From assembly GCF_965641715.1 (NCBI RefSeq), contig NZ_OZ282453.1: a stretch of DNA of 64,000 nt; one strand, written 5' to 3'. The notes beneath the pieces were generated by a model. The model worked only from the letters and a program-made list of their open reading frames with translations, was not told the origin of the DNA and did no database searches. The stretch comes from Escherichia coli. GTDB lineage: Bacteria > Pseudomonadota > Gammaproteobacteria > Enterobacterales > Enterobacteriaceae. The position numbers and the translations under genes are program-made. Every line of letters begins with the position of its first letter. The stretch's first letter is position 1. This document shows positions 4,540 to 21,734 of this stretch, piece after piece.

Positions 4540-5052
4540 TCATTGTGATATTTCCATCTCTGTGATTAATACCGGATAAGCATTTAATTGCAGAGTTTGC
4601 ACGAAATTATCGCAGATAACTGGCAATAACAATAACCCATCAGCCCGCTGCTGTAATACCTCCATTCGTTCTACTGATTCAACATTAACAACCAAACCAA
4701 GGGCATTTAGCGATTTAAGGATCTCCAGATGTTCACTCATCCAGCGCAGAGAAAAAGGATCATCACCAATTATAAAAACAGGCCCCCAGCCGGTTAATAA
4801 CTGGCGTTTCATTACGGAACCAGGATGAAGTCGAGTACATATTACAGGAAATACCCCCTGTTGCGATGGTTCCGATGATGTGGATAATTCAGAAATATTT
4901 TCCATTGTTAGTGAAGAATTAACATGCATTAATAATGGTGAAACAACCTCACTTTCCTTGCTAGTAATGGCTGCACTAATCTGAAAGGAAAATAACAATA
5001 TTATTACGTATAAACTCATTTTTAACATAACACATTCAATCCGTTTATTCAT
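4540..5052 (-). CDS. Hypothetical protein with N-terminal hydrophobic signal/anchor (170 aa), AT-rich
   Basis: ORF with hydrophobic N-terminus (MSLYVIILLFSFQISAAITS); low GC relative to flanks; sits between two H-repeat fragments. Function unknown. Confidence 0.4.
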   Translation of the reverse strand: MNKRIECVMLKMSLYVIILLFSFQISAAITSKESEVVSPLLMHVNSSLTMENISELSTSSEPSQQGVFPVICTRLHPGSVMKRQLLTGWGPVFIIGDDPFSLRWMSEHLEILKSLNALGLVVNVESVERMEVLQQRADGLLLLPVICDNFVQTLQLNAYPVLITEMEISQ

Positions 5053-6871: not shown

Positions 6872-8965
6872 TTAACCTCGGCTCACCGTTTTCGATTCCA
6901 TCCAATAAATGACCCGGTTGGATGTGGGCTGATCGCCAACAACTTTGCCATCTGCAGAGATTAGCTTCAGCTCTTTATTAGCCTCATCACCGAAGTAAAT
7001 CATGCGGTAGCGAAAATAACCGCCCCAGGGTTCGCGTCCACCCAGCGAACTTTGCATAAACCAGGCGCGGGAGTCGTGAACCTGGTCATCATAGAGAGCC
7101 AGTAATTCAGCGCAGGGCTGAGTACGCGTTCCCGTTCCCAGTGAATCAATAAAAAATTGTGGATAGAGTCCGTCTCCCATAGCCTTAATTTGCTGATATT
7201 CTTTTGCTTCATCATCGCCATTAATCAGATACACCGGATATTTAGGAATGACATCCACAAGAATCTGAATGGCTTTCTCCATGACGCTGCCGTTAATATC
7301 GCGCGTCCATCCTTTATAATCGCTCTGAAATTCTCGGGCTGCCTCTCGCAACTGATACTGAGCATTGGTTGGGTCAAGGATAGGAATGCCCTGATTACTT
7401 TCATCAAGTGTGCCATTCCCTTTCTGCTTGTTCGCCCGCTCTTTTTCAATATTTTCCATTTGTTCTTTACGCGCTTTAGCCTCTTTATCAAGTCCATCTT
7501 TATCCAGCTGTGGCGCCTTAATATAAAAAGGTTGCACAAGAAGGCTGTTATTCGCATAGCGACCGATACGCCAGGCGGTGATCCAGCCGATCTGATCGCT
7601 AATTGCGCTTTCAAGAACCTGGGCAAGTTGATAGGAGTGATAATCTTCCCTCGTATCAATCATTTCTTCTGTACCCTGCAAGGTGGTGTTCAGCAGCGTT
7701 TGTCGCCAGATGTTGAAGCGTTTTGTTAATGAATTAGCAATCGTAAATTCCTTTACGCTAGAAGGACTCATAATTCGCAGAGGCGACACACCTTTTATTA
7801 ATGGAGTAACAAATTTAGAATAAACAGCAAGTGGTGCTCCTGAATCAAATGCAGCAAGATACATATCATGCAGTGCTATCTGAGAAAGAATTTCGCCTGA
7901 GTCACCACAGGACTTCCCCTGATCGCGAACGGGATAGCCACCACCGACATCAGAGTGCATCCCCGGATAGATAATTTCCTCTGCATTTAAAGGATAATTT
8001 CCGTCTGGACGACGGATTGAATCCAGCGGAAAGCACAGCCGCTGCTCATGCGCGGCAACGAAGTGGCGGCAGCATTTAATCAGGCCGGGAAACTGCCTCT
8101 CATCAGGGAGTTGCTGAGTACTATCGGCCCATCCCATATGACCGGCAGCGCCCGGTAAAACATGCGCCGCCCCCACAGAAGCTACGGTATCCAGCAGCCC
8201 CAAAAACTCAATACTGACAGCTAACCCGGCCAGCATCACCTGTTGCTCCTGCGGGCAAGCTAACTGAGTCAACCAGTTAACAAAAGTTCGTGCTTCCGCT
8301 GCGCCACGGGAAAATCCGTAGATAAACAGCTTTACGTTTAGCAGGCGCGGACTGGCTTGCTCTAACAGTCCCTGTAATTTTTCCAGGTAGGGGTTAATCA
8401 CATTGCGACGATTCACTTCACCAGTCATAGGCCAGGGAGCGCGCATAAGAGGAATGTGCTCTTTTGCCACATTATCATCCAGTCGCTTATGGGAAGGGTC
8501 AATGGAATAGCTCAGGGCATCCACGAGGCGTAATAATGCCCAATTAATTCGATCTTCACCACCAGTAGCGAACTCCAGCCCGCTGTTGCTGTAATCCATT
8601 TCACCTATCTTGGGAAATGGTGTGCCTACACCCGGTATATAGTAGTTAAAATATCCCTGTTCTTCTGCGTTCTGATAGGTCGTATGAAACAGTTTGGCAA
8701 TATTGATTGGGTGTCCAGGAGTGTCATTATATTCATTATTATTTGTACCATCAAAAAACAGACTAATATGCAGACTTTGATTACACGTAAAGCCAATTCT
8801 AAATCCAGCCTGTTTACTACAGTTGGTTTTGTGCTCTTCTGTTTTATTGATTTGTTTTAGGTAGTTCGCGTTTACCTGCGCTTCAGATAATATTAATCGC
8901 CCATTTTCAGGAAACGCTGGGGGGGCATAACACGGAAAAGCCAGACCACTTATTTCGCTGGACAT
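6872..8965 (-). CDS. T6SS phospholipase effector candidate, Tle1-like (DUF2235 alpha/beta hydrolase, 697 aa)
   Basis: GxSxG nucleophile motif in KLFIYGFSRGAAEARTFVNWL; last gene of a vgrG-remnant/DUF4123 cargo module; family assignment from motif and context only. Confidence 0.55.
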   Translation of the reverse strand: MSSEISGLAFPCYAPPAFPENGRLILSEAQVNANYLKQINKTEEHKTNCSKQAGFRIGFTCNQSLHISLFFDGTNNNEYNDTPGHPINIAKLFHTTYQNAEEQGYFNYYIPGVGTPFPKIGEMDYSNSGLEFATGGEDRINWALLRLVDALSYSIDPSHKRLDDNVAKEHIPLMRAPWPMTGEVNRRNVINPYLEKLQGLLEQASPRLLNVKLFIYGFSRGAAEARTFVNWLTQLACPQEQQVMLAGLAVSIEFLGLLDTVASVGAAHVLPGAAGHMGWADSTQQLPDERQFPGLIKCCRHFVAAHEQRLCFPLDSIRRPDGNYPLNAEEIIYPGMHSDVGGGYPVRDQGKSCGDSGEILSQIALHDMYLAAFDSGAPLAVYSKFVTPLIKGVSPLRIMSPSSVKEFTIANSLTKRFNIWRQTLLNTTLQGTEEMIDTREDYHSYQLAQVLESAISDQIGWITAWRIGRYANNSLLVQPFYIKAPQLDKDGLDKEAKARKEQMENIEKERANKQKGNGTLDESNQGIPILDPTNAQYQLREAAREFQSDYKGWTRDINGSVMEKAIQILVDVIPKYPVYLINGDDEAKEYQQIKAMGDGLYPQFFIDSLGTGTRTQPCAELLALYDDQVHDSRAWFMQSSLGGREPWGGYFRYRMIYFGDEANKELKLISADGKVVGDQPTSNRVIYWMESKTVSRG

Positions 8966-9504
8966 GTTGCTGGTTCCTTCATCTCGCGGGGTTCTTTGAT
9001 GGGATAATTCGGTGTGCCATACTTCTGGCAGACGGTTGTCACTTTAATCTGATTACACGTTAGAAAATGAACGGTCAGGCCACAAAGCTCAGCATCGTAT
9101 TCCGGGATATCAACAATTGCGGTATGTTGAATGTAACTTTCTTTTAGTTTTTTCTCCCAGGCCTGATATTTATCCCAATCCTTATAGAGTGGTGGCGGAG
9201 GTACTGTATTTGGGGTAATTTCCCATTCAACCTGGGCTTTTAATCCAGAATGCCACTTATCTGGCAGCATAACGCAACAATATCCTCCACCGTCTCCGAA
9301 TGGACCAATATTTGGTCCGCCGTAACCATTGATGTGTATATAATTTATATCCTTATCCGTATGATTTATCCCATTAATATCCACAGCAGTGTAATCACCG
9401 CTATTTTTTGCCATTGAACAGCCTGATACTGCAAATAAAATCATTAGAGAATAACATTTGAAAATCGTTCTCATACTGATACTTTTCCTTATTTTGCTGG
9501 ACAT
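8950..9504 (-). CDS. Small lipoprotein, candidate Tle immunity protein (Tli-like)
   Basis: Lipobox-type signal peptide MRTIFKCYSLMILFAVSGC if translation starts at ATG 9474 (ORF track start 9504); 16 nt overlap with the start of the Tle1-like gene. Confidence 0.45.
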   Translation of the reverse strand: MSSKIRKSISMRTIFKCYSLMILFAVSGCSMAKNSGDYTAVDINGINHTDKDINYIHINGYGGPNIGPFGDGGGYCCVMLPDKWHSGLKAQVEWEITPNTVPPPPLYKDWDKYQAWEKKLKESYIQHTAIVDIPEYDAELCGLTVHFLTCNQIKVTTVCQKYGTPNYPIKEPREMKEPATCPAK

Positions 9505-9817
9505 GTTGCTGGTTCTTTTACTTTGAGAGATTTTAATTGATGGGTATTGTTTCTACGACAATAAAGTTTTGACAAAGAAGCAAATAAAATGCATATCTTT
9601 CGATTGTCACACATTGGAATATCGACAGAGCATTGATGATATTACGCAAAATATATTGCAGCCAAGTGAACTGACATTACGATCGAACACAAATGCAACA
9701 TGATGGATACTACCATTACATGTCGAGCTTGATTTTCCGTTTATTTCACGATTATCTCTTGATATTAACAGCTACGGACTTTTAAACAGATAAATCTCCC
9801 CGTACATCACCACAATA

Positions 9818-10588
9818 TTATCCTTCGAAGTCCCGCAAAGCTCCGAAATATTTCGCGTCATTGGCTCTGAAAGCAATATCAAGACAGTGGGCAAAATAGC
9901 TTTCCTGACTGAGTTCACTGACTGCTTTCTCCTTCATCAGGACTTCAGCGTCGCAGATACAGCCCATCAATCCCACCTGTACATCATCCACCCGATTCAT
10001 CTCCGGGTTGTCAGTAAGCCTGCGTTCTGGTGAAAAACTTCCTGATTTCCAGTTAATCTCACCATCACGGTCTAACCAGCTCCAGAACAACGCAATATCA
10101 GTAAATGTCGCCTGCTGCTCGTTAGTCAAAACATGTGTGAACAGTAAAGGGAACACCCGATTATCATAGTAACGCAGCAATCCGGTCTGTTCTTCCCACT
10201 GAACCTGTGACAATACCTGAAGATGCCGCCCCAGCAGGTCGAATGTAAGAGGGGATATCAACAAAGTAAGACGCGGCGTATCAGCAAATGACGCCATCAG
10301 TTGTGCCAGAAATTTGCGATGGCTACTGAGCGCAAAGTACAGGCGTAACACTACAGGGGAATACTCCATCGTCTCAGCTTCAGGCGTTCCTTCAAACAGG
10401 GCATACCAGTGAATGGCTGGCCACAGATGAAGTATCTCATTTTGCAAAGGTTGGTCGGTTCCAGCCTGGTCAACAAGCACATCTATGTAATCCAAACCAG
10501 CGGCAGAACAGAATGATTCAGCCTGCTTCAGCCAGATAATATATTTGTCTTGATCGGTAGCGCGTGGCGATACTGTTATCATCGTCAT
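9818..10588 (-). CDS. DUF4123-family T6SS effector adaptor/chaperone (Tap/Tec-like)
   Basis: 256 aa; N-terminal YIDVLVDQAG and central LLRYYDNRVFPLL resemble the DUF4123 signature segments (compare YAIVDGA / LMRFYDPRNIWVL in ORF 18198..19040); immediately follows a vgrG tail. Confidence 0.55.
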   Translation of the reverse strand: MTMITVSPRATDQDKYIIWLKQAESFCSAAGLDYIDVLVDQAGTDQPLQNEILHLWPAIHWYALFEGTPEAETMEYSPVVLRLYFALSSHRKFLAQLMASFADTPRLTLLISPLTFDLLGRHLQVLSQVQWEEQTGLLRYYDNRVFPLLFTHVLTNEQQATFTDIALFWSWLDRDGEINWKSGSFSPERRLTDNPEMNRVDDVQVGLMGCICDAEVLMKEKAVSELSQESYFAHCLDIAFRANDAKYFGALRDFEG

Positions 10589-10594
10589 TCTCCC

Positions 10595-11051
10595 TTATCC
10601 ACGAGGCGCAAAAGCGGCGGCGGCTTCCTGCGCCCTTTTCAGGCACTCCTTACACACCGATTTTTCTGGCGCTTCCTCACCCTCATCGTTGTTATCATTC
10701 TGATCGGACGATGCATTACTATCATTTTGCTCAGCCGCTAAACTTTTATCATCTGCCAGCGCTTTCAGAACCGCCGGTTGCAGCGTCGGCACCGGCGTTC
10801 CCGGACTACCGCCGCTATTGAGATTGATTTTCGGCCCGACGATGTCCACGCCCCCTGAATGGATGACCACAAACGAACCGCCCACCTTCAGGCTTATCCG
10901 GCTGCTGCTCTCCAGCACCACATCGCCCTCCACCTTTAACCACGCCACCGCAGTCAATGGCATCACCGGTTCTGGCGGTAGGTTTATCGTCGATAAAGGC
11001 GGAAGAGGTGTTTCCGGCTCTTAAGAAATATTTACGCACATGCACCAGCAT
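10595..11051 (-). pseudogene. Remnant fusing the 3' end of a PAAR gene to the 3' tail of a vgrG gene (internal deletion)
   Basis: One frame encodes FIDDKPTARTGDAIDCGGVV (PAAR C-terminus, compare PAAR 15133..15417); the adjacent frame encodes LKVEGDVVLESSSRISLKVGGSFVVIHSGGVDIVGPKINLNSGG (VgrG tail, compare vgrG2) followed by an acidic linker. Confidence 0.6.
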
Positions 11052-11082: not shown

Positions 11083-11859
11083 TCAATAAGGTTGCTTTAC
11101 CAAGCTTCCATCGATATTGATGGAAAATTCATTAGACCTAATATGAACAGAATGTTGCTCATCATCTTTATCTAATATTTGATTAACAAAAAAAAACGTA
11201 TTTTTATCAAATTCATAATTATCACATCCCTCTCCACTAAATGATATAGCTCTAAAATCATATTCATTACATGAGTATCTTTTCATCAAAATAGAGAGGA
11301 ATGTTTCATTAATTGATTTTAATACAAACCATTTTCTCCTAACAAGTTTGTAGTTTAATGTTTTTATATGATAATTATTTAAACTGGGGAGAAATGAATG
11401 CATATCATTCAATTTTACATCAAAAGATATTTTTTTACCTGCCGTAATTTCCACCCATCGGCTCAAATTCAAATCAAGCTCAAAGGGACAAAAGCCTCCT
11501 AGATAGTCTAAGCTAATATTTCCTGATGTAATCAAGAATTCGTCATCACACAAAGCATCAAATACATCTCCATTTCCTTTTTGGAAGTTCTTTGGATAAT
11601 ATATTCTGGGGAGAAAATACGATTTAGTACTACTGTTATAAAAAGTTATAGTAGCTAAAATATTTTCAGCATGTGGCTTAACCACCAATTTAACAACAAC
11701 ATCATTTGTTAATTCATTACTTATATTTTCCTCTGGCGCTAAATTATGGCTAAGATAAATAATTGGTTTCCCATTGTCACTTCTTCGTTCAAAACCGAAT
11801 CTGTATTTTTTTACAAAAAGATTCTCATTATCTATTGCAATTGCAATAGATAATGGCAA
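11083..11859 (-). CDS. Hypothetical protein, candidate immunity protein for the upstream metallopeptidase-like effector; N-terminal signal peptide is out of frame
   Basis: Body ORF starts at TTG 11859; a 31-codon ORF from ATG 11923 (one nt after the effector stop) encodes MKRLAFYNLNYVVLMVFFSLFFAIIYCNCNR in the other frame; the two frames would join if one base were removed from the homopolymer tract. Confidence 0.45.
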   Translation of the reverse strand: MPLSIAIAIDNENLFVKKYRFGFERRSDNGKPIIYLSHNLAPEENISNELTNDVVVKLVVKPHAENILATITFYNSSTKSYFLPRIYYPKNFQKGNGDVFDALCDDEFLITSGNISLDYLGGFCPFELDLNLSRWVEITAGKKISFDVKLNDMHSFLPSLNNYHIKTLNYKLVRRKWFVLKSINETFLSILMKRYSCNEYDFRAISFSGEGCDNYEFDKNTFFFVNQILDKDDEQHSVHIRSNEFSINIDGSLVKQPY

Positions 11860-11924: not shown

Positions 11925-12728
11925 TTATTTCCCCGTCAACTCATCAAAACATTTTTCTATCTCTTTTATTTTATCCTCTACTTTTTTTGCTAACATATTC
12001 TCATCTTGAGCTTCAATATCTTCATCATTTAATTTTATATAAAAATATCTTTCAACATTATATGCATTCTCAAATAACTGATCTTTACGCAATGTAACCA
12101 GATCATTAGCCACTGAAACATGTTTCTCATAGCTAACTTCATCCTTATTACTTGTTGCGAACTTATTAATACCCGTATAATCCTGAGTCCACATACCACC
12201 TTTTTGATTGTCACCCCAATACCAAAATATATGGGACATTTCATGGCAAAGTGTACTTACATGAGAGTCTCTACCTGTAACCGACTGTTTTATACCATGT
12301 CTGTATTCAAAATGCGCTCCGATATTTACAATGTAAGGAGGATCAAGATGTGGACTAATAAAAGCAGCAAATTCATTGCAGTTCGTATAATCTTTATAGC
12401 TTTCGATCGTCAAACCATTTGCAATCGTCATTATTCGTCTGATGCCATCCATTATGAATAGTCTCGCTTGCATTCGTTTCCCAGTATCTTCCCCAACTTT
12501 TCTGATTTTTATAATGTCCTCGCCTTTAAGGCCAAAAACTTTAATAAAATCTCGTTGTTGTTCCCCCTCCCATGACATAATATCATCTGCTCTTTTCAAT
12601 AAAACCATTTTCTGTGCTTTACAAGCCTTACTCATCATTATTTTAAATTTATTTGTAATTTTTTGCGGTACTACACATACTTGCGACTCGGGTTGTGAAG
12701 TCCCACTAGTATTATTATTCCCTGCCAT
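11925..12728 (-). CDS. HExxH zinc-metallopeptidase-like T6SS effector candidate (268 aa)
   Basis: HEMSH motif followed by WTQDYTG (loosely aspzincin-like); start ATG at 12728 (MAGNNNTSG) overlaps the vgrG2 stop; the longer ORF 11925..13103 is not used because it overlaps vgrG2. Confidence 0.55.
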   Translation of the reverse strand: MAGNNNTSGTSQPESQVCVVPQKITNKFKIMMSKACKAQKMVLLKRADDIMSWEGEQQRDFIKVFGLKGEDIIKIRKVGEDTGKRMQARLFIMDGIRRIMTIANGLTIESYKDYTNCNEFAAFISPHLDPPYIVNIGAHFEYRHGIKQSVTGRDSHVSTLCHEMSHIFWYWGDNQKGGMWTQDYTGINKFATSNKDEVSYEKHVSVANDLVTLRKDQLFENAYNVERYFYIKLNDEDIEAQDENMLAKKVEDKIKEIEKCFDELTGK

Positions 12729-15114
12729 AATGCCCCTCCGGCTCAATATAAAAAGCATCCGAAAATAACAATTGGACTTTAATTTCCTGTGCTGTATCTG
12801 TATAAAATATTTCTGTATATCCCTCTCTGTCTGTTTCACCACGCGTCTGTGTGCCATCCTCAAAAAAGGCAATATACTGCGTCTCTGAATACGGTATCCC
12901 GTCATCGTCCGTAAAATGGAACTGGAGGGTATATTTTTCAGGATCATCTTCATCGTCACCGCCATCACCTCCTCCGTCACTCCCTGCGGGATTGCCACTA
13001 TCCTCTCCGGAGTCATCACTGCCATCATCACTGCTCTCATCCTCCGGAGCCTCCAGCACCGCCGGCTGCATCGTCCCCACCGGTGTCCCCGCACTGCCCC
13101 CACCGTTCAGGTTTATCTTCGGCCCGGCAATATCCACTCCGCCCGGCTGAATGACGATAAACGAGCCACCCACCTTCAGGCTTATCCGGCTGCTGCTCTC
13201 CAGCACGATATCCCCGTCCACTTTTATCCCCAGCGCGCCACTCACCTTCTCCGCCAGGTCCCCCTTCACCTCCAGGCTGTGCTTCCCCTCCACCAGGCTG
13301 ATGTGGTTACCCGTCGTCTTATGCTCCTGCTTCCCTTTCACCGTCACCCTACGGTCATTTCTGACGTACAGACCGTCATCGTGACTCACGCTCACCGTCC
13401 GGTCATTTGTCACCTTCAGCGTCTGGTCGTTACGTACCGTTATGCTCCGGTCGTTCGCCACCGTGATACTCTGGTCGTGGCCTCCTTCTTTTCTGGTCCC
13501 GACCTCAACCGTCTGCCCCTTCACCACCGTTATCTTCTGGTCGTTACCAATGGTCTCCGTATGGTCATGTTTCACATCCGTTGTCCGGTCGTTGAGCACC
13601 TCCGTATCCATGTTCTTCTGCGCATGGATATACACCTGCTCATTACTGGTGGCGTCCTCAAAGCGCAACTCGTTAAATCCGCTTCCTTTATAGGTCTTCG
13701 ACCGTATCGTCATCTGCGTCTTCGTCCCCGGCAGGCTCCCCGGCGAACGGTTGTCCTCATGGTACGTCCGGCCCATGACCAGCGGCTGGTCCGGGTCTCC
13801 GTTCAGGAAGTCAACAATCACCTCCTGACCCACCCGCGGTATCGCCAGGTTACCAAACCCCGGCCCCGCCCACGCCTGTGATACCCGCACCCAGCATGAA
13901 CTCGCCTCCGTCATCCCGTGATAACGGTCCCAGTGGAACTTCACCCGTACCCGGCCATGTTCGTCGCAGAATATCTCCTCACCCTTCGGCCCGGTGACAA
14001 TGGCGCTCTGCGGCCCGTCCACCTTCGGTTTGCTTTGCAGCCGTGGACGCCACGTCCGGTCCGCCGGTATCACCTCTAACTGATTTCCCAGCGTGGTTCC
14101 TCTCCCCTGGCTGCCGTGCAGCGCCTGCGGCTGGCTTCCTGACAGTATGCTCTGTACCACCTGCCATTCACGGTTCAGCATCTTCTGCGGATGCCCCGTC
14201 AGCGTAAACCGCGTTCCCGGCCACAGCCTCGGCGAATTACTCTGCCCTGTGGCCTTTTCCGCATCACTGCGCAGGCTCTCCATCTGGTACAGCGTGAAAT
14301 CCTTGCCGTGCTGCTCATCCTTGAACCTTCCCGGATAATCAAATATCTCGTACTGCGCCAGCTGTCCGTTCAGGTTCTCACCCTGCTGCTCATACATCCC
14401 CGGCCAGTCCGGCACCTTAAACGTGTAATCCTGGCTCTGCACCGACGACGGGCGGACATGCGCCTCATAACGGAACATACTGAGACACTCCGTCTCCGCT
14501 CCTGCCGATGTGTCCGGGTTAAACGGAAGCTCTCCCGCCTGTGACAGCCCCGCCACATCGTCGCACAGCGTCAGCTTCTGCTCCGGACTGTCCGCCGCAA
14601 ACCGCTCAAAGAAGAAAATTCCTTCTTCCGCCCACAGCCGAGCCAGAAACGCCAGGTCGCTCTCCCCGTACTGGACACAGAACTCCCGCGCCGGATGGTC
14701 TTCATAAAACAGCGGAGTCCACTCCGTGACGCCGTTCTCGTTCAGTAACGTGGCCGATATCGTCCGGATATCCTGCTGCTGAAAAATACGAAAGTTCTGC
14801 CGCAGCCCGCACCGCCATAACGGCGGCTCAATACGCAGGTGATAACGCATCTGCCAGCCGTTGTTCTCCTGCATGCCAAAGCCCGCCACCACGCCGGTGA
14901 CATAACGCTGCGCCACCGCGCCCTGCCAGATGGCCAGCGTCGCCTTCTTCTCCAGCAGCATCTCCGCCGTCTGCATAAAAGAGTCGCTGGCAACATCCAC
15001 ACTCATCACAAACGGATAAGACTGGTTCTGGATTAACCTGAAATTCACCACTGCAAAGGTGTCCGGCTCCTGGCCGTCAATCTCCAGCGTAAAGCGCAGA
15101 CCGTTTAAGGACAT
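12715..15114 (-). CDS. vgrG: VgrG spike protein with C-terminal extension (799 aa)
   Basis: N-terminal 480 aa identical to the vgrG at 19037..20995; gp27/gp5-like repeats (VKGDLAEKVSG..., ISLKVGGSF...); acidic D/E/G/S linker and an extra ~60 aa C-terminal domain. Confidence 0.9.
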   Translation of the reverse strand: MSLNGLRFTLEIDGQEPDTFAVVNFRLIQNQSYPFVMSVDVASDSFMQTAEMLLEKKATLAIWQGAVAQRYVTGVVAGFGMQENNGWQMRYHLRIEPPLWRCGLRQNFRIFQQQDIRTISATLLNENGVTEWTPLFYEDHPAREFCVQYGESDLAFLARLWAEEGIFFFERFAADSPEQKLTLCDDVAGLSQAGELPFNPDTSAGAETECLSMFRYEAHVRPSSVQSQDYTFKVPDWPGMYEQQGENLNGQLAQYEIFDYPGRFKDEQHGKDFTLYQMESLRSDAEKATGQSNSPRLWPGTRFTLTGHPQKMLNREWQVVQSILSGSQPQALHGSQGRGTTLGNQLEVIPADRTWRPRLQSKPKVDGPQSAIVTGPKGEEIFCDEHGRVRVKFHWDRYHGMTEASSCWVRVSQAWAGPGFGNLAIPRVGQEVIVDFLNGDPDQPLVMGRTYHEDNRSPGSLPGTKTQMTIRSKTYKGSGFNELRFEDATSNEQVYIHAQKNMDTEVLNDRTTDVKHDHTETIGNDQKITVVKGQTVEVGTRKEGGHDQSITVANDRSITVRNDQTLKVTNDRTVSVSHDDGLYVRNDRRVTVKGKQEHKTTGNHISLVEGKHSLEVKGDLAEKVSGALGIKVDGDIVLESSSRISLKVGGSFIVIQPGGVDIAGPKINLNGGGSAGTPVGTMQPAVLEAPEDESSDDGSDDSGEDSGNPAGSDGGGDGGDDEDDPEKYTLQFHFTDDDGIPYSETQYIAFFEDGTQTRGETDREGYTEIFYTDTAQEIKVQLLFSDAFYIEPEGHYGRE

Positions 15115-15132
15115 AAATACCTCTCAGACATA

Positions 15133-15417
15133 TCAGCCTATATTTACCGTACCGCCACCAATGACCACACCACCACAGTCGATGGCATCACCGGTTCTGG
15201 CGGCGGGCAGGCCGTCAATAAAGACGGTTGAAGAACCTCTGGCGATTTTACGGGGATGAGGTGGATGCTTCGGTTTAGCATGCGGCGTCAGCGGATCTCC
15301 CTGGCGAGCAGCAGGTAATCCATCAATAAATACCGTGGATGAAGCCGCAATGATGACTGTCTCACGGTAGCCATCATGCTGAGTACCTTTGTCGTTTAAT
15401 CTGGCAGCTAAAGGCAT
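15133..15417 (-). CDS. PAAR-domain spike tip protein (94 aa)
   Basis: Duplicated SSTVFIDGLPAAR(Q/T)GD motifs and C-terminal AIDCGGVVIGGG; located directly upstream of vgrG2. Confidence 0.8.
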   Translation of the reverse strand: MPLAARLNDKGTQHDGYRETVIIAASSTVFIDGLPAARQGDPLTPHAKPKHPPHPRKIARGSSTVFIDGLPAARTGDAIDCGGVVIGGGTVNIG

Positions 15418-15527
15418 AATTCCTCCTGTTCAGAATATCAGCGACAAAAAATTTAAAAAACGGTAAGGTGCTTAACTCAGCAATAATCACCTTACCGGAC
15501 ATCCTGATTTGTAGCCCAACAGGTTAA

Positions 15528-16538
15528 TCAAGTAACAGGGATAAACTGACCATCAATCAGCGAAAATACCGGAGCGTAATACCCCATACGCTCTTCACCA
15601 CTTTCATCTGTAAAACGGTAAGTCAGTGGGGAATACGTTGGCATTGATTTATTATATAATTGCACCATACGCCCATTATTCATAACCCGGACGGCATAAT
15701 CGTTCCACCTGATAGGCAGTATTTTGGCTTTTCCACCCTCAAGGTTATCTTTCGGAAAGTGGGAGAGTAATATGTCATCCTCAGAGTCACCGGTTGTGGC
15801 TGACCATGCCTTCAGCGCCTCTGTGTTATATAACTTAAGACGTGCTCTGTCCCCGCTGTTAATAATTGTTGCCATTTCGGTATAGGTGGCTTTTAACTTC
15901 CGTAGCTGCTCGTCGCTTCCGGTATAGGGGGTTGCCCGCGTCCAGGCCCATTCAGGAAGCCCCGTCACCGTGACTTTTTGTGTAAACTGATACACCTTCA
16001 TCCCTTTCGGAAAATAGGTTTCATCAAAATAATCTGGATCTATAAATCCTGGCTCCGCCTGCTCTGCCAGGATCTCTTTCCTGATAACGGGATGCACGCT
16101 GTCTGACCGGGCTTCAGGTATGCCCTGCTGGTTGATGGTCACTTTTATCGAAGAAAGCAGGGTTTCTTCCTGTTTAATAAAACGAACCAAATCCAGGCTG
16201 CACCCTGCTTTTTGGAAAAAACGCCCCCGTTCTTCCGTACTGGCAGGCTTGTCAGAAAACCATCCTAACGCCCCGATTTCCAGACTGATTTCATTTTCTC
16301 CATTCGCCATCAGCATCATGGCATTGGTGCTGGATATGGCCCCGGTGGAATCACCATTCTCTCGCCATGCGTTCATTCGGTTACTGAAGCCGAGGACACC
16401 GTTGGTTTTGATGGCACAATATGATTCCTCAATATTAAACTTACTGCGGATTTTTTGTGGATTTTCACCCGAGTACAATCCTGCTCCCATAATACCTCCT
16501 GACAGTAAAATAACCGATATTAAATGTTTTACCTTCAT
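15528..16538 (-). CDS. Secreted hypothetical protein (336 aa), candidate immunity protein for the 523 aa effector
   Basis: N-terminal signal/anchor MKVKHLISVILLSGGIMGAGLYSG; immediately downstream of the effector candidate. Confidence 0.45.
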   Translation of the reverse strand: MKVKHLISVILLSGGIMGAGLYSGENPQKIRSKFNIEESYCAIKTNGVLGFSNRMNAWRENGDSTGAISSTNAMMLMANGENEISLEIGALGWFSDKPASTEERGRFFQKAGCSLDLVRFIKQEETLLSSIKVTINQQGIPEARSDSVHPVIRKEILAEQAEPGFIDPDYFDETYFPKGMKVYQFTQKVTVTGLPEWAWTRATPYTGSDEQLRKLKATYTEMATIINSGDRARLKLYNTEALKAWSATTGDSEDDILLSHFPKDNLEGGKAKILPIRWNDYAVRVMNNGRMVQLYNKSMPTYSPLTYRFTDESGEERMGYYAPVFSLIDGQFIPVT

Positions 16539-16604
16539 AATTATTTTCTCTTAAAAGGAAAAGACTCTCATTATATTGAGTGATTTTAATTGCTGTAATA
16601 TCAC

Positions 16605-18176
16605 TTAATAATCCATGCCTATTGTCCACGTTGTCACTGGCTTCGGCGGTATTACTTTTTTCTCTACCGTGCGTTCTTTACCGTATAAATTAACCCGCAA
16701 TGGTGAATCTTTTATCTCCATAGGATCACATAACTGCCACTCAACGGTATCTTTCTTCTCGGGTTTCTCACTCTTTTCTTTCCCCTTTCCCTTCCCTTTA
16801 CTTTCACCATAAGATACATCCGCCTTAAATTCGAACTTTCCTTTAATGCCGTCATGAAATAATGCCAGGTCCAGTCCGTCATCATGTGAATCGAATCCAA
16901 AGCCAGCTTTCGCCTCTATAGAAGCGGTCGCTTCTGCGGTCAGTTGTACAACAAAAACATTCGCCTCAAACGTCGCACTCACCACACCTTTTAAACCGAG
17001 CTTGATGTTACTTTCCTTTACATTAAACTCCCATTTTTTATCCTTTTCAGCGTATACTGCGCCAAGATCAAGATTAATCTCCGCTGAAATCTCGATATAG
17101 CATTCAACACTGGCTCCGTTTTTACGGAGATATTCACGACATCTGTTGACCAATGACTCGACTTTACAGTATGCACATATAAATGAAATAATATCGAATC
17201 TGAACGACGCTTCAAAAAATGGGGCACCAAACAAACCATAAAAATGACAGGGGCCATCCTGGATATCGGTATATTGATAGGCATACGATATACCCAGTTT
17301 AACGGGTTCTATTTTTGCACTGAACAATGCATATTTGCGCGTACCATTATTATTGTCAGGATCTGGCGCAAAATATTTATTGACATTCTTGACCAGAGAG
17401 TCAATTCTTCCTATCTGTTCCAGTTGCTTTGTTTGTCGAAGTTTTTTTATCTCTTTTTCATATTCACTTGTGTGTTCAACATTAGCTATTTTTACGCCAA
17501 AATCGACAGTCAGGGAAGTCTTGTTTATCCACTCAAACTCAGCAGTGGTATTTGTCCAGCCGCTACGGAGTTTATTTTTATCCCTGGGCTTGGTGTTCTC
17601 CATTGCGTCCCTGGCTTTTATTCTTTCGTCACGCCGCTCTTTTACTGTTCGCGTCTGTTTTGATGACGAAATCTCATAGCTGAACCCTGTAGTAAACCTA
17701 ATTTCCATTGTAGGATAAACATCAATTTCAACATAATTGCCACATTCGTAACAACTGTCAATTCTGACTGAATAATGGGCAGGTTCATAATGATTCTTAA
17801 GTGGAGAGGATATTGCCCCCAAATAATCCCATGGTACGCGAAATGTACCCATAGCAATTATTTCACCTTCAGACAAGTTATCATCCAAAGTGACCTTATT
17901 AGGTATTCCGAAAGGTTGCAGTATCTTATGATTATTTTCTGATTCTTCCTCTAACCATGCCTCATGTGTTCCACTTTTATCGCACTGGTAGGTAATGGTA
18001 ATTATACCATCACATCCGGAACCATCATCCAGTAGCTTAAAACGCGCCACTCCTTCTTTTGACCAGAAATGTTTCTCGCCGGCCTCTGGAAAATCACTAA
18101 TAACATCAAAAATACATGGATCAGGTATGCCGCATTCCACACAGGGCTTTCCGGCTGTCGAAGATGGAGATGTCAT
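16605..18176 (-). CDS. Unassigned T6SS effector candidate (523 aa), DUF4123-adaptor dependent
   Basis: Follows vgrG1 and a DUF4123 adaptor; no catalytic motif recognised; lysine-rich low-complexity stretch (KGKGKGKEKSEKPEKK) near the C-terminus. Confidence 0.5.
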   Translation of the reverse strand: MTSPSSTAGKPCVECGIPDPCIFDVISDFPEAGEKHFWSKEGVARFKLLDDGSGCDGIITITYQCDKSGTHEAWLEEESENNHKILQPFGIPNKVTLDDNLSEGEIIAMGTFRVPWDYLGAISSPLKNHYEPAHYSVRIDSCYECGNYVEIDVYPTMEIRFTTGFSYEISSSKQTRTVKERRDERIKARDAMENTKPRDKNKLRSGWTNTTAEFEWINKTSLTVDFGVKIANVEHTSEYEKEIKKLRQTKQLEQIGRIDSLVKNVNKYFAPDPDNNNGTRKYALFSAKIEPVKLGISYAYQYTDIQDGPCHFYGLFGAPFFEASFRFDIISFICAYCKVESLVNRCREYLRKNGASVECYIEISAEINLDLGAVYAEKDKKWEFNVKESNIKLGLKGVVSATFEANVFVVQLTAEATASIEAKAGFGFDSHDDGLDLALFHDGIKGKFEFKADVSYGESKGKGKGKEKSEKPEKKDTVEWQLCDPMEIKDSPLRVNLYGKERTVEKKVIPPKPVTTWTIGMDY

Positions 18177-18197
18177 ATAATCTATCCGTTTGTCTTT

Positions 18198-19040
18198 TTA
18201 TTGCGGGATAAATCCCAGTTCCTGTTGTGCAAGTTCATGTACCCGAATATGTCCCGGGTATGACTGATTGCTGAGTTGTTCATACCAGTCATCCGGAATA
18301 TATCTGAGATCGATTATATTTTTTTTCAGTAATATAAGCGTCATTGTTCTGACGGAACGATCATCTGCTATATTTAATGACTGGCAAAAAGAGAAATAAT
18401 CTTCTGCCAGAATTCGGGATGATTCAGCTTTTGATAAATCATCCCATCCGTCTTTATCTACATTTTCTTCGATAAATGCAGATAATATATCAAGATAATT
18501 ATCCCGTGCCTTTCGTTCCAGTTGGCTATATTGTCTGTAACTCAGCGTCAGTTGTGATGGCCGTTCTGCCCTTATATTCATAGTTTCTGCGGGACGGACG
18601 GAAGAAAAATTATCCTCACGACATTCTTCACCATAGCGGGTACTTAGCTGTCTGACGGGGCTGATAAAAGAAAGAAGCTGGCGGGGGGTCAGAACTTCCG
18701 CTAATACCCATATATTCCGGGGATCATAAAATCGCATGAGAACAGGTTTCTCCTGTTCGGGGATCATAACCCACAGATAACGTCTGAAGTGTTGCTGTAG
18801 CTCACGTATGGATGACTCAGAAGTAAGATATATTCCCCACGGCGACGCCTTATCACTCAGCCATGCTTCAACTTCCGGAACAACCTCCACGAGATAAGGG
18901 GCCAGCGCGACCAGATCCGGTTGTATGGGTTCTGCATACAGACAACAGTGCGGGGGATTCACCTCGTTCAGAAAATCCAGCAATCCTTCCTCCACAGCGC
19001 CATCCACAATGGCGTACTGCACGGGTGCCGTTTCCATCAC
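18198..19040 (-). CDS. DUF4123-family T6SS effector adaptor/chaperone
   Basis: YAIVDGA near the N-terminus and LMRFYDPRNIWVL in the middle; 4 nt overlap with the vgrG1 stop. Confidence 0.65.
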   Translation of the reverse strand: MMETAPVQYAIVDGAVEEGLLDFLNEVNPPHCCLYAEPIQPDLVALAPYLVEVVPEVEAWLSDKASPWGIYLTSESSIRELQQHFRRYLWVMIPEQEKPVLMRFYDPRNIWVLAEVLTPRQLLSFISPVRQLSTRYGEECREDNFSSVRPAETMNIRAERPSQLTLSYRQYSQLERKARDNYLDILSAFIEENVDKDGWDDLSKAESSRILAEDYFSFCQSLNIADDRSVRTMTLILLKKNIIDLRYIPDDWYEQLSNQSYPGHIRVHELAQQELGFIPQ

Positions 19041-20995
19041 TTATCCTCCTTCGGACAATGCGACACGAACATCGAACCACTTCCGGCTGCGGCTTTCAGG
19101 ATCACCGGGCGCATCGGCAGGATCACATCCCCCGGACTGCCCCCGCCGTTAAGATTGATTTTCGCGCCCTTAATATCCACGCCGCCGGAATGGATCACCA
19201 CAAATGAACCGCCCACCCGCAGACTGATTTTGCTGTCGCTCTGTAAAACAATATCGCCCTGTACGCTGATACCCAGCGCGCCGCTTATTTTCTGTGCCAG
19301 ATCGCCTTTCACCTCCAGTCCCTGATTGCCCTCTGTCAGGCTGACGTGGTCTTTGGTGGTTTTATGGTCCTGTTTACCTTCAACCGTCACTTTCCGGTCA
19401 TTTGCCACCACCAGGGATTCATCATGCCCGATGCTGACCGTCCGGTCATAGTTGACCCGCTTATCCTTGCTGTTCAGCACAACGACCTGCATATTTTTCT
19501 GTGCGTGCAGATAAATTTCTTCCTTGTCCGTGGCGTCCTCAAACCGCAGTTCGTTAAATCCGCTTCCTTTATAGGTCTTTGACCGTATCGTCATCTGCGT
19601 CTTCGTCCCCGGCAGACTCCCCGGCGAACGGTTGTCCTCATGGTATGTCCGGCCCATGATTATCGGCTGGTCCGGGTCTCCGTTCAGGAAGTCAACAATC
19701 ACCTCCTGACCCACCCGCGGTATCGCCAGGTTACCGAACCCCGGCCCCGCCCACGCCTGCGATACCCGCACCCAGCATGAACTCGCCTCCGTCATCCCGT
19801 GATAACGGTCCCAGTGGAACTTCACCCGTACCCGGCCATGTTCGTCGCAGAATATCTCCTCACCCTTCGGCCCGGTCACAATGGCACTCTGCGGCCCGTC
19901 CACCTTCGGTTTGCTTTGCAGCCGTGGACGCCACGTCCGGTCTGCCGGTATCACCTCTAACTGATTTCCCAGCGTGGTTCCCCTCCCCTGGCTGCCGTGC
20001 AGCGCCTGCGGCTGGCTTCCTGACAGTATGCTCTGTACCACCTGCCATTCACGGTTCAGCATCTTCTGCGGATGCCCCGTCAGCGTAAACCGCGTTCCCG
20101 GCCACAGCCTCGGCGAATTACTCTGCCCTGTGGCCTTTTCCGCATCACTGCGCAGGCTCTCCATCTGGTACAGCGTGAAATCCTTGCCGTGCTGCTCATC
20201 CTTGAACCTTCCCGGATAATCAAATATCTCATACTGCGCCAGCTGTCCGTTCAGGTTCTCACCCTGCTGCTCATACATCCCCGGCCAGTCCGGCACCTTA
20301 AACGTGTAATCCTGGCTCTGCACCGACGACGGGCGGACATACGCCTCATAACGGAACATACTGACACACTCTGTCTCCGCTCCTGCCGATGTGTCCGGGT
20401 TAAACGGAAGCTCTCCCGCCTGTGACAGCCCCGCCACATCGTCGCACAGCGTCAGCTTCTGCTCCGGACTGTCCGCCGCAAACCGCTCAAAGAAGAAAAT
20501 TCCCTCCTCCGCCCACAGCCGCGCCAGAAACGCCAGGTCCGACTCCCCGTACTGCACACAGAACTCCCGCGCCGGATGGTCCTCATAAAACAGCGGCGTC
20601 CACTCCGTGACGCCGTTCTCGTTCAGTAACGTGGCCGATATCGTCCGGATATCCTGCTGCTGGAAGATACGGAAGTTCTGCCGCAGCCCGCACCGCCATA
20701 ACGGCGGCTCAATACGCAGGTGATAACGCATCTGCCAGCCATTGTTCTCCTGCATACCAAAACCCGCCACCACGCCGGTGACATAACGCTGCGCCACCGC
20801 GCCCTGCCAGATGGTCAGCGTCGCCTTCTTCTCCAGCAGCATCTCCGCCGTCTGCATAAAAGAGTCGCTGGCAACATCCACACTCATCACAAACGGATAT
20901 GACTGGTTCTGGATTAACCTGAAATTCACCACTGCAAAGGTGTCCGGCTCCTGGCCGTCAATCTCCAGCGTAAAGCGCAGACCGTTTAAGGACAT
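19037..20995 (-). CDS. vgrG: VgrG spike protein (652 aa, no C-terminal extension)
   Basis: Full-length VgrG architecture; first ~480 aa identical to vgrG2, diverging in the C-terminal third. Confidence 0.9.
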   Translation of the reverse strand: MSLNGLRFTLEIDGQEPDTFAVVNFRLIQNQSYPFVMSVDVASDSFMQTAEMLLEKKATLTIWQGAVAQRYVTGVVAGFGMQENNGWQMRYHLRIEPPLWRCGLRQNFRIFQQQDIRTISATLLNENGVTEWTPLFYEDHPAREFCVQYGESDLAFLARLWAEEGIFFFERFAADSPEQKLTLCDDVAGLSQAGELPFNPDTSAGAETECVSMFRYEAYVRPSSVQSQDYTFKVPDWPGMYEQQGENLNGQLAQYEIFDYPGRFKDEQHGKDFTLYQMESLRSDAEKATGQSNSPRLWPGTRFTLTGHPQKMLNREWQVVQSILSGSQPQALHGSQGRGTTLGNQLEVIPADRTWRPRLQSKPKVDGPQSAIVTGPKGEEIFCDEHGRVRVKFHWDRYHGMTEASSCWVRVSQAWAGPGFGNLAIPRVGQEVIVDFLNGDPDQPIIMGRTYHEDNRSPGSLPGTKTQMTIRSKTYKGSGFNELRFEDATDKEEIYLHAQKNMQVVVLNSKDKRVNYDRTVSIGHDESLVVANDRKVTVEGKQDHKTTKDHVSLTEGNQGLEVKGDLAQKISGALGISVQGDIVLQSDSKISLRVGGSFVVIHSGGVDIKGAKINLNGGGSPGDVILPMRPVILKAAAGSGSMFVSHCPKEDK

Positions 20996-21215: not shown

Positions 21216-21734
21216 TTATGCTTCCAGCGGTGCACGCCAGTCATCGGCACCAGAAGTACCGGATTTGATGTGCTCCCACTCAACCTTACGGTATGCCAGT
21301 GATACTGCGAGCAATTGCGTAAACTCACGCTGTGCAGGGTCCTGGCAGTGCGGCATGTGCAGGTTCATGTCCACAATCGTCGCGTCAGTAAGACGTGTGG
21401 TGAAGTAGTGCTCCTGCTTGCCTTCAACTGAAGTACGCCACCAGTGCAGCTCCACTTTCGGCAGCATTTCACCGGAGGCCAGCGCGTTGTACAGCAGCGG
21501 AACGGCTTTGTTCAGCGCCACGGTGAAAATGAACGGTTTGTGCGCGCGCTGCCCGGAAGGTTGACCAGACTGTGGATCGGTTGGAACAGTAACGTTATGC
21601 AGAAACTCCTGCACCAGCATTTCATCTTCGTGTCCCTGCACGTAGATATTGCCGACAGAATCTGCGGTGAAAGCACCGGCAGTGATGTTCCCCTGGGTCT
21701 GACCTGTAATTGAAATGTAACATGGGGTTGGCAT
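21216..21734 (-). CDS. hcp: Hcp tube protein (172 aa)
   Basis: Hcp family sequence (MPTPCYISITGQTQGNITAGAFT...); first gene of the minus-strand hcp-vgrG cargo operon. Confidence 0.88.
   Translation of the reverse strand: MPTPCYISITGQTQGNITAGAFTADSVGNIYVQGHEDEMLVQEFLHNVTVPTDPQSGQPSGQRAHKPFIFTVALNKAVPLLYNALASGEMLPKVELHWWRTSVEGKQEHYFTTRLTDATIVDMNLHMPHCQDPAQREFTQLLAVSLAYRKVEWEHIKSGTSGADDWRAPLEA

Follow-up and report, generated by a model that had tools for sequence, protein, structure and literature searches.

The module described here lies on the minus strand of a 64,000-nt stretch of an Escherichia coli contig (hereafter the window) and consists, in minus-strand order, of hcp, vgrG1, a gene for a DUF4123 adaptor, a gene for a 523 aa protein, a gene for a 336 aa protein with a signal peptide, and a PAAR gene. 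Our analysis indicates that this locus is probably the E. coli counterpart of the Aux 4 cargo module of the Vibrio cholerae type VI secretion system (T6SS), whose toxin would permeabilise membranes from the periplasm. On sequence grounds, the 523 aa protein (16605-18176) is a divergent enterobacterial subfamily of the TpeV superfamily, and the 336 aa protein (15528-16538) is its TpiV-family partner, a predicted periplasmic immunity protein. The locus is a recognisable weapon module and no new kind of system: the TpeV/TpiV family and a trio of genes from strain UMN026 (see below) were already known, and what is new is the divergent family member and the annotation link to TpeV.

The V. cholerae Aux 4 cluster has been described as hcp-vgrG-tap(DUF4123)-tpeV-tpiV-paar (Crisan et al., mSphere 2021, PMC8386463). 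TpeV is a protein of 535 aa with 11 cysteines and no recognisable domain, which, when present in the periplasm, provokes propidium iodide uptake and depolarisation detected with DiBAC4(3); TpiV protects against it, killing is T6SS-dependent, and mechanisms other than a pore were left open by its authors (PMC8386463). The gene order in the window is identical to that of Aux 4, and the effector, the immunity protein, the adaptor and the PAAR protein are all homologous to their V. cholerae counterparts. Both effectors are cysteine-rich proteins of ~525-535 aa that lack a signal peptide, a transmembrane helix and any known domain, and a Sec-type leader is common to the two immunity proteins. The two loci differ in their surroundings, as the module in the window adjoins a main T6SS cluster whereas Aux 4 is a mobile auxiliary island.

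The effector of the window contains 13 cysteines, and its highest 19-residue hydropathy window reaches only 1.19. In the initial annotation, which was made from the sequence alone, it had been considered unassigned and potentially new, without a recognisable catalytic motif. The last point agrees with our searches, since the protein gave no match in Pfam, NCBIfam or PDB sequence-profile searches, and a Pfam scan of 36 members of the TpeV superfamily was equally empty. The claim of novelty, however, has been superseded, both by the family assignment and by the earlier publication of the UMN026 trio (PMC11114119). The close homologues of the effector form 37 clusters (at 90%), all of them annotated as hypothetical and all from Enterobacterales, and an exhaustive search of 1.84 billion representatives with the effector profile retrieved only 81 proteins. 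Among these are more distant relatives of ~510-600 aa, which come from Morganella, Providencia, Photorhabdus, Xenorhabdus, Yersinia, Serratia, Photobacterium, Salinivibrio and Enterovibrio. We also found a V. cholerae protein of 536 aa (P0347) in an hcp-vgrG-DUF4123-X-262 aa-PAAR locus, and because this locus fits the description of Aux 4 (PMC8386463) we took P0347 as TpeV and used it as the first row of the Vibrio TpeV family alignment. In the remote-homology check proposed in the initial annotation, hhalign aligned the effector family with the Vibrio TpeV family at a probability of 99.7% (E 1.1e-25) over 450 columns, residues 7-498 against 6-534. In addition, the hidden Markov model (HMM) of the Vibrio family reached the window effector at E 1.5e-17, and BLASTP aligned residues 151-499 with V. 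cholerae TpeV at 22% identity (E 1e-5). Several of the homologues tabulated in the TpeV paper (Table S1 of PMC8386463), namely A0A0F7LUJ5 (our P0181), A0A380QA02, A0A1C7W8W6 and C7BTS6, were recovered here as well.

The lysine-rich stretch KGKGKGKEKSEKPEKK that had been quoted for this protein is indeed present, at residues 460-475. Because it is poorly conserved and has a predicted local distance difference test score (pLDDT) below 50, we interpret it as a variable linker, and the KGKGKGKEK stretch was rejected as a functional motif. Two other identities were considered and discarded for the effector. It is not a Tle lipase (Tle1-5), as it has neither a Tle domain nor the HxKxxxxD motif, and its sole GxSxG (457-461) falls in a non-conserved loop. 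Neither is it a relative of the TseVF/TsiVF pair of Vibrio fluvialis, in which the toxic region is alpha-helical and corresponds to residues 965-1141 of a far longer protein with a LysM domain.

The assignment of the 336 aa protein follows the same lines, direct annotation against Pfam, NCBIfam and PDB sequences having yielded no usable match for it either. Its family HMM detected V. cholerae TpiV at E 1.8e-23, BLASTP aligned 281 aa of the two at 25% identity (E 3e-13), and in Morganella, Photorhabdus and Photobacterium the same HMM matched those genes that lie downstream of a TpeV-like gene. The family comprises 183 homologous 90% clusters, with several close-set copies in some genomes. A hydrophobic N-terminal leader is found in all 29 aligned homologues, many of them with an AxA-type site, and two cysteines are invariant across this set; in the window protein the best hydropathy window is at residue 6. 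The AlphaFold2 model (pLDDT 89.8) predicts a beta-sandwich followed by an NTF2-like domain, with residues 1-24 unstructured. The earlier suggestion of a secreted immunity candidate is in line with this conserved leader and with the homology to TpiV. The start codon is ambiguous in RefSeq, which often begins the gene at Met17 (a 320 aa form), thereby losing the leader. A strong AGGAGG sequence located 5 nt upstream of Met17, inside the leader-coding region (16488-16538), accounts for this frequent call, and both starts might be used, but a leader that is conserved speaks in favour of the 336 aa form. In V. cholerae TpiV, an upstream in-frame extension contains an LLSGC lipobox, whereas the window leader has Gly at the position of the lipobox Cys and no Cys at all; for this reason we rejected, for the window copy, the lipoprotein leader that was proposed for its UMN026 counterpart ECUMN_0233 (PMC11114119).

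As for relatives of the immunity protein beyond these genera, some Serratia fonticola proteins of 315 aa (P0289 and P0291), which bear the NCBI name 'IdsF', are detected by the TpiV-like immunity HMM (E 6e-32). Judging from these Serratia matches, IdsF, whose gene closes the ids operon of Proteus mirabilis, may belong to the TpiV family.

The remaining genes of the module are those expected for adaptor-dependent cargo. At its head stands hcp (21216-21734, minus strand, like all the others), an open reading frame (ORF) whose equivalent in E. coli 042 bears the annotation Hcp family T6SS effector. It is followed by the gene for the 652 aa spike protein and cargo carrier VgrG1 (19037-20995; TIGR03361, E 1e-179), the stop of which overlaps the start of the adaptor gene (18198-19040) by 4 nt. 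The adaptor, a 280 aa protein of the Tap/Tec class, matches Pfam PF13503 over residues 9-122 (E 1.3e-25) and is 27% identical to the DUF4123 protein of Aux 4 (BLASTP, E 1e-32), besides a weak match to NCBIfam Tla1 (E 3e-9). The YAIVDGA and RFYDPR segments from which the initial annotation had recognised it are located at residues 9 and 103, respectively. The module ends with a 94 aa PAAR tip protein (15133-15417; NF033420, E 7e-47), 60% identical to the PAAR protein of Aux 4 (E 1e-30). Gaps of 21, 66 and 110 nt separate adaptor from effector, effector from immunity gene and immunity gene from PAAR gene, and the cargo genes have a GC content of 41-46% compared with ~58% for the vgrG genes, which fits what would be expected for exchangeable cargo. 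The effector and immunity families are kept adjacent in five genera, and the pairs of Morganella, Photobacterium, Photorhabdus and Vibrio lie behind vgrG and DUF4123 genes; the same order, with a TpiV-like gene after the effector gene and PAAR nearby, is found in loci of V. cholerae, Morganella and P. damselae. This adjacency, together with the homologue clusters, shows that the 523 aa and 336 aa ORFs are real genes and not chance ones. Every ORF of the proposed layout lies where it had been placed, and the VgrG, adaptor, effector, periplasmic immunity protein and PAAR architecture is supported.

In E. coli, at least 80% of positions 15100-19100 of the window is held by 322 of 5426 complete genomes (~6%). 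Many complete genomes match this region at 95-97% identity, among them that of the enteroaggregative E. coli (EAEC) strain 042, in which the central pair of genes, next to tssB, tssC, tssE, tssF and tssG, is listed as coding for hypothetical proteins; RefSeq likewise labels the products of the toxin and antidote genes as hypothetical. The genes have nevertheless been described before. ECUMN_0231-0233 of the uropathogenic E. coli (UPEC) strain UMN026 were published in silico as a chaperone/effector/immunity system, a description that rests on context, Bastion6, SignalP and docking, with no domain found in the effector (PeerJ 2024, PMC11114119). These genes were reported to be over-represented in urinary tract infection (UTI) isolates and were put forward as markers for isolates from the urinary tract; UTI symptoms showed no relation to them, and the cluster was assigned to T6SS-2, a virulence-linked type (PMC11114119). 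In our comparison 12 of the 12 residues named in the docking analysis occupy identical positions, the DUF4123 span of 9-122 is equal and 15 of the 18 leader residues are identical, and because of this agreement the window trio and ECUMN_0231-0233 are apparently the same three genes. That study drew no connection with TpeV and called the ECUMN_0233 leader a lipoprotein signal (PMC11114119). Our literature searches on the EC042 locus tags and on later papers on the TpeV mechanism found nothing further.

E. coli has a second TpeV-like family, formed by P0207 (526 aa) and its TpiV-like partner P0317 (345 aa), which was looked for in the 64-kb window and is not present there. P0207 matches the profile of the window family at E 8e-19 and P0317 the immunity HMM at E 4e-23, but P0207 is much closer to Vibrio TpeV than the window effector is (HMM E 5.5e-46, phmmer E 4e-28). 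Where the 2021 TpeV paper speaks of an E. coli homologue, it probably refers to the P0207 family and not to the protein of the window. In Photorhabdus thracensis (CP011104, 1-12513), at least five tandem pairs of TpeV-like (530-531 aa) and TpiV-like (286-307 aa) genes, an unusual effector-immunity expansion, adjoin a ParE toxin gene and a transposase.

The AlphaFold2 model of the effector (pLDDT 70.4; predicted template modelling score, pTM, 0.62) consists of an N-terminal beta domain, to which the five conserved N-terminal cysteines belong, followed by three helices and by a C-terminal half that is built, from residue 292 to 456, of very long strands (18-23 residues). As in amphipathic beta-hairpins, one face of these strands is hydrophobic and the other polar. 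Their period-2 pattern is kept in the enterobacterial and Vibrio families and its observed value was attained in 0 of 500 shuffles, although the same pattern also occurs in soluble sheets packed on helices. The top structural matches of the model were outer-membrane beta-barrels, which are generic long-strand similarities with a high root-mean-square deviation (rmsd), and no fold similarity to the known beta pore-forming toxin families (haemolysin, aerolysin, MACPF/CDC) was obtained. Across the superfamily, D328, H441 and S491 are the sole near-invariant polar side chains, each of them present in 35 of 36 sequences that share 14-52% identity, and they correspond to the invariant D338, H464 and S527 of the Vibrio family. 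In the model, the amphipathic barrel-like sheet is compatible with a beta-type pore, which is speculative, while the conserved Asp/His/Ser set could mark a hydrolase or another functional site.

A Foldseek search of AFDB50 with the effector model also returned much larger uncharacterised proteins (550-1013 aa) of Flavobacterium and Niabella with a TpeV-like fold (E 1e-10 to 1e-17), which suggests, at the level of predicted structures, that this toxin domain occurs in Bacteroidota as well.

Taking these data together with the V. cholerae experiments, we propose that the DUF4123 adaptor would load the 523 aa toxin on the VgrG1/PAAR spike and that T6SS firing would carry it into the periplasm of a Gram-negative neighbour. 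In that compartment the toxin would compromise the membrane barrier, leading to permeabilisation and loss of the membrane potential, whereas the exported 336 aa protein would shield sister cells, most likely by binding the toxin. In a more speculative version, the long amphipathic beta-hairpins would enter the membrane and make up a beta-type pore. What the window itself provides is the homology of four cargo genes to Aux 4, the gene order, the signal peptide, and the beta-rich amphipathic C-terminal half of the effector. For periplasmic action, permeabilisation, depolarisation and immunity we infer from the V. cholerae work, and loading through adaptor, VgrG1 and PAAR is suggested by the DUF4123 literature and by gene order. 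The guess made in the initial annotation of a cell-envelope target gains support, as the founding member TpeV acts from the periplasm and both permeabilises and depolarises membranes (PMC8386463).

Several observations weigh against this proposal. The window effector shares only ~20-22% identity with TpeV and was not reached by a single-sequence phmmer search started from V. cholerae TpeV, so that conservation of function is a deduction. A soluble periplasmic immunity protein is more common with enzyme effectors than with pore formers, the superfamily-wide Asp/His/Ser set is not explained by a pore, and the resemblance to beta-barrels is of the generic kind mentioned above. Moreover, for the UMN026 genes the published evidence consists of strain-level competition and docking only (PMC11114119).

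Some of these same observations lead to another explanation, which we regard as possible but clearly less likely than the Aux 4-like module proposed above, namely that the toxin is a hydrolase of a new fold (an esterase, a lipase or another envelope-degrading enzyme) acting through Asp328-His441-Ser491, in which case permeabilisation would be secondary to substrate breakdown and the immunity protein would block the active site. The near-invariance of the three residues from Enterobacterales to Vibrio speaks for it, as does the predicted partner, a soluble two-domain periplasmic protein; Tle/Tli and Tae/Tai pairs also have soluble periplasmic immunity proteins. The caution of the TpeV authors about non-pore mechanisms leaves room for such an enzyme (PMC8386463). 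We find it improbable, in turn, that the toxin has neither a pore nor catalysis of its own and instead binds or disturbs an envelope component, such as an outer-membrane protein, a porin, the BAM/Lpt machinery or lipid trafficking, with the barrel-like sheet serving as a mimic or as a lipid-binding surface. The barrel matches that might inspire this idea are those high-rmsd, long-strand similarities, no partner is predicted, and the depolarisation caused by TpeV indicates the inner membrane. Finally, the over-representation of ECUMN_0231-0233 in UTI isolates and the virulence-linked T6SS-2 class could be taken to mean that the module is chiefly directed at the host, as a virulence factor, instead of serving as an antibacterial weapon. 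We consider this very unlikely, because an exported immunity protein stands beside the toxin in every genus examined, sometimes in multicopy, which argues for self-protection from an antibacterial toxin, and because of the lack of relation with UTI symptoms (PMC11114119).

Among other T6SS toxins, VasX, Tse4, Ssp6, Tme, Tke5 and Tse5-CT are alpha-helical or colicin-like and have membrane-embedded immunity proteins. They share with TpeV the action in the periplasm and the depolarising outcome. Unlike the helical pore formers, the window effector is beta-rich and its predicted immunity protein would be soluble and periplasmic; our literature search on T6SS pore formers found descriptions of helical or colicin-like ones and none of the beta type. 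We advance as a tentative idea that the TpeV superfamily represents either the first beta-type membrane-inserting T6SS toxin or an Asp-His-Ser hydrolase of a new fold. In both cases its neutraliser would be a periplasmic protein made of a beta-sandwich and an NTF2-like domain, and the fold of the toxin would reach Bacteroidota, with matching Flavobacterium and Niabella proteins of 850-1080 aa.

The link to TpeV/TpiV gives genes labelled as hypothetical an immediate, testable function, and the annotation extends over Salmonella, Citrobacter, Enterobacter, Pectobacterium and Dickeya. The value that remains after the earlier publications lies in this annotation link and in the molecular mechanism of the family, for which the barrel-like amphipathic sheet, the invariant Asp/His/Ser set and the high-confidence model of the immunity protein are structural leads.

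Directly downstream of the module, the window contains a second cargo module (11925-15114, minus strand). Its VgrG2 (799 aa), which differs little from VgrG1 along most of the N-terminal ~520 residues (near-identical), has a C-terminal extension of its own and overlaps by 14 nt the gene for a 267 aa protein with a zincin-like HEMSH motif, which matches Pfam Aspzincin_M35 weakly (independent E value 0.0022) and nothing in NCBIfam. The following ORF (258 aa, 11083-11859, 29% GC) is a likely immunity candidate, and this pair looks less characterised than the TpeV-like one. A third module (6872-10966, minus strand) is composed of a C-terminal VgrG remnant (10595-10966), a Tla1 chaperone equivalog (9818-10588, E 3e-65), a Tli1a immunity protein (8950-9504, E 8.5e-63) and a Tle1 phospholipase with the Pfam Tle1 catalytic and C-terminal domains (6872-8965). 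The T6SS cargo island has at its edge a gene for an integrating conjugative element protein of the PFL_4695 family (4540-5052, minus strand; TIGR03765, E 2e-35), and in E. coli 042 copies of ISAs1 and a group II intron interrupt the equivalent of this region.

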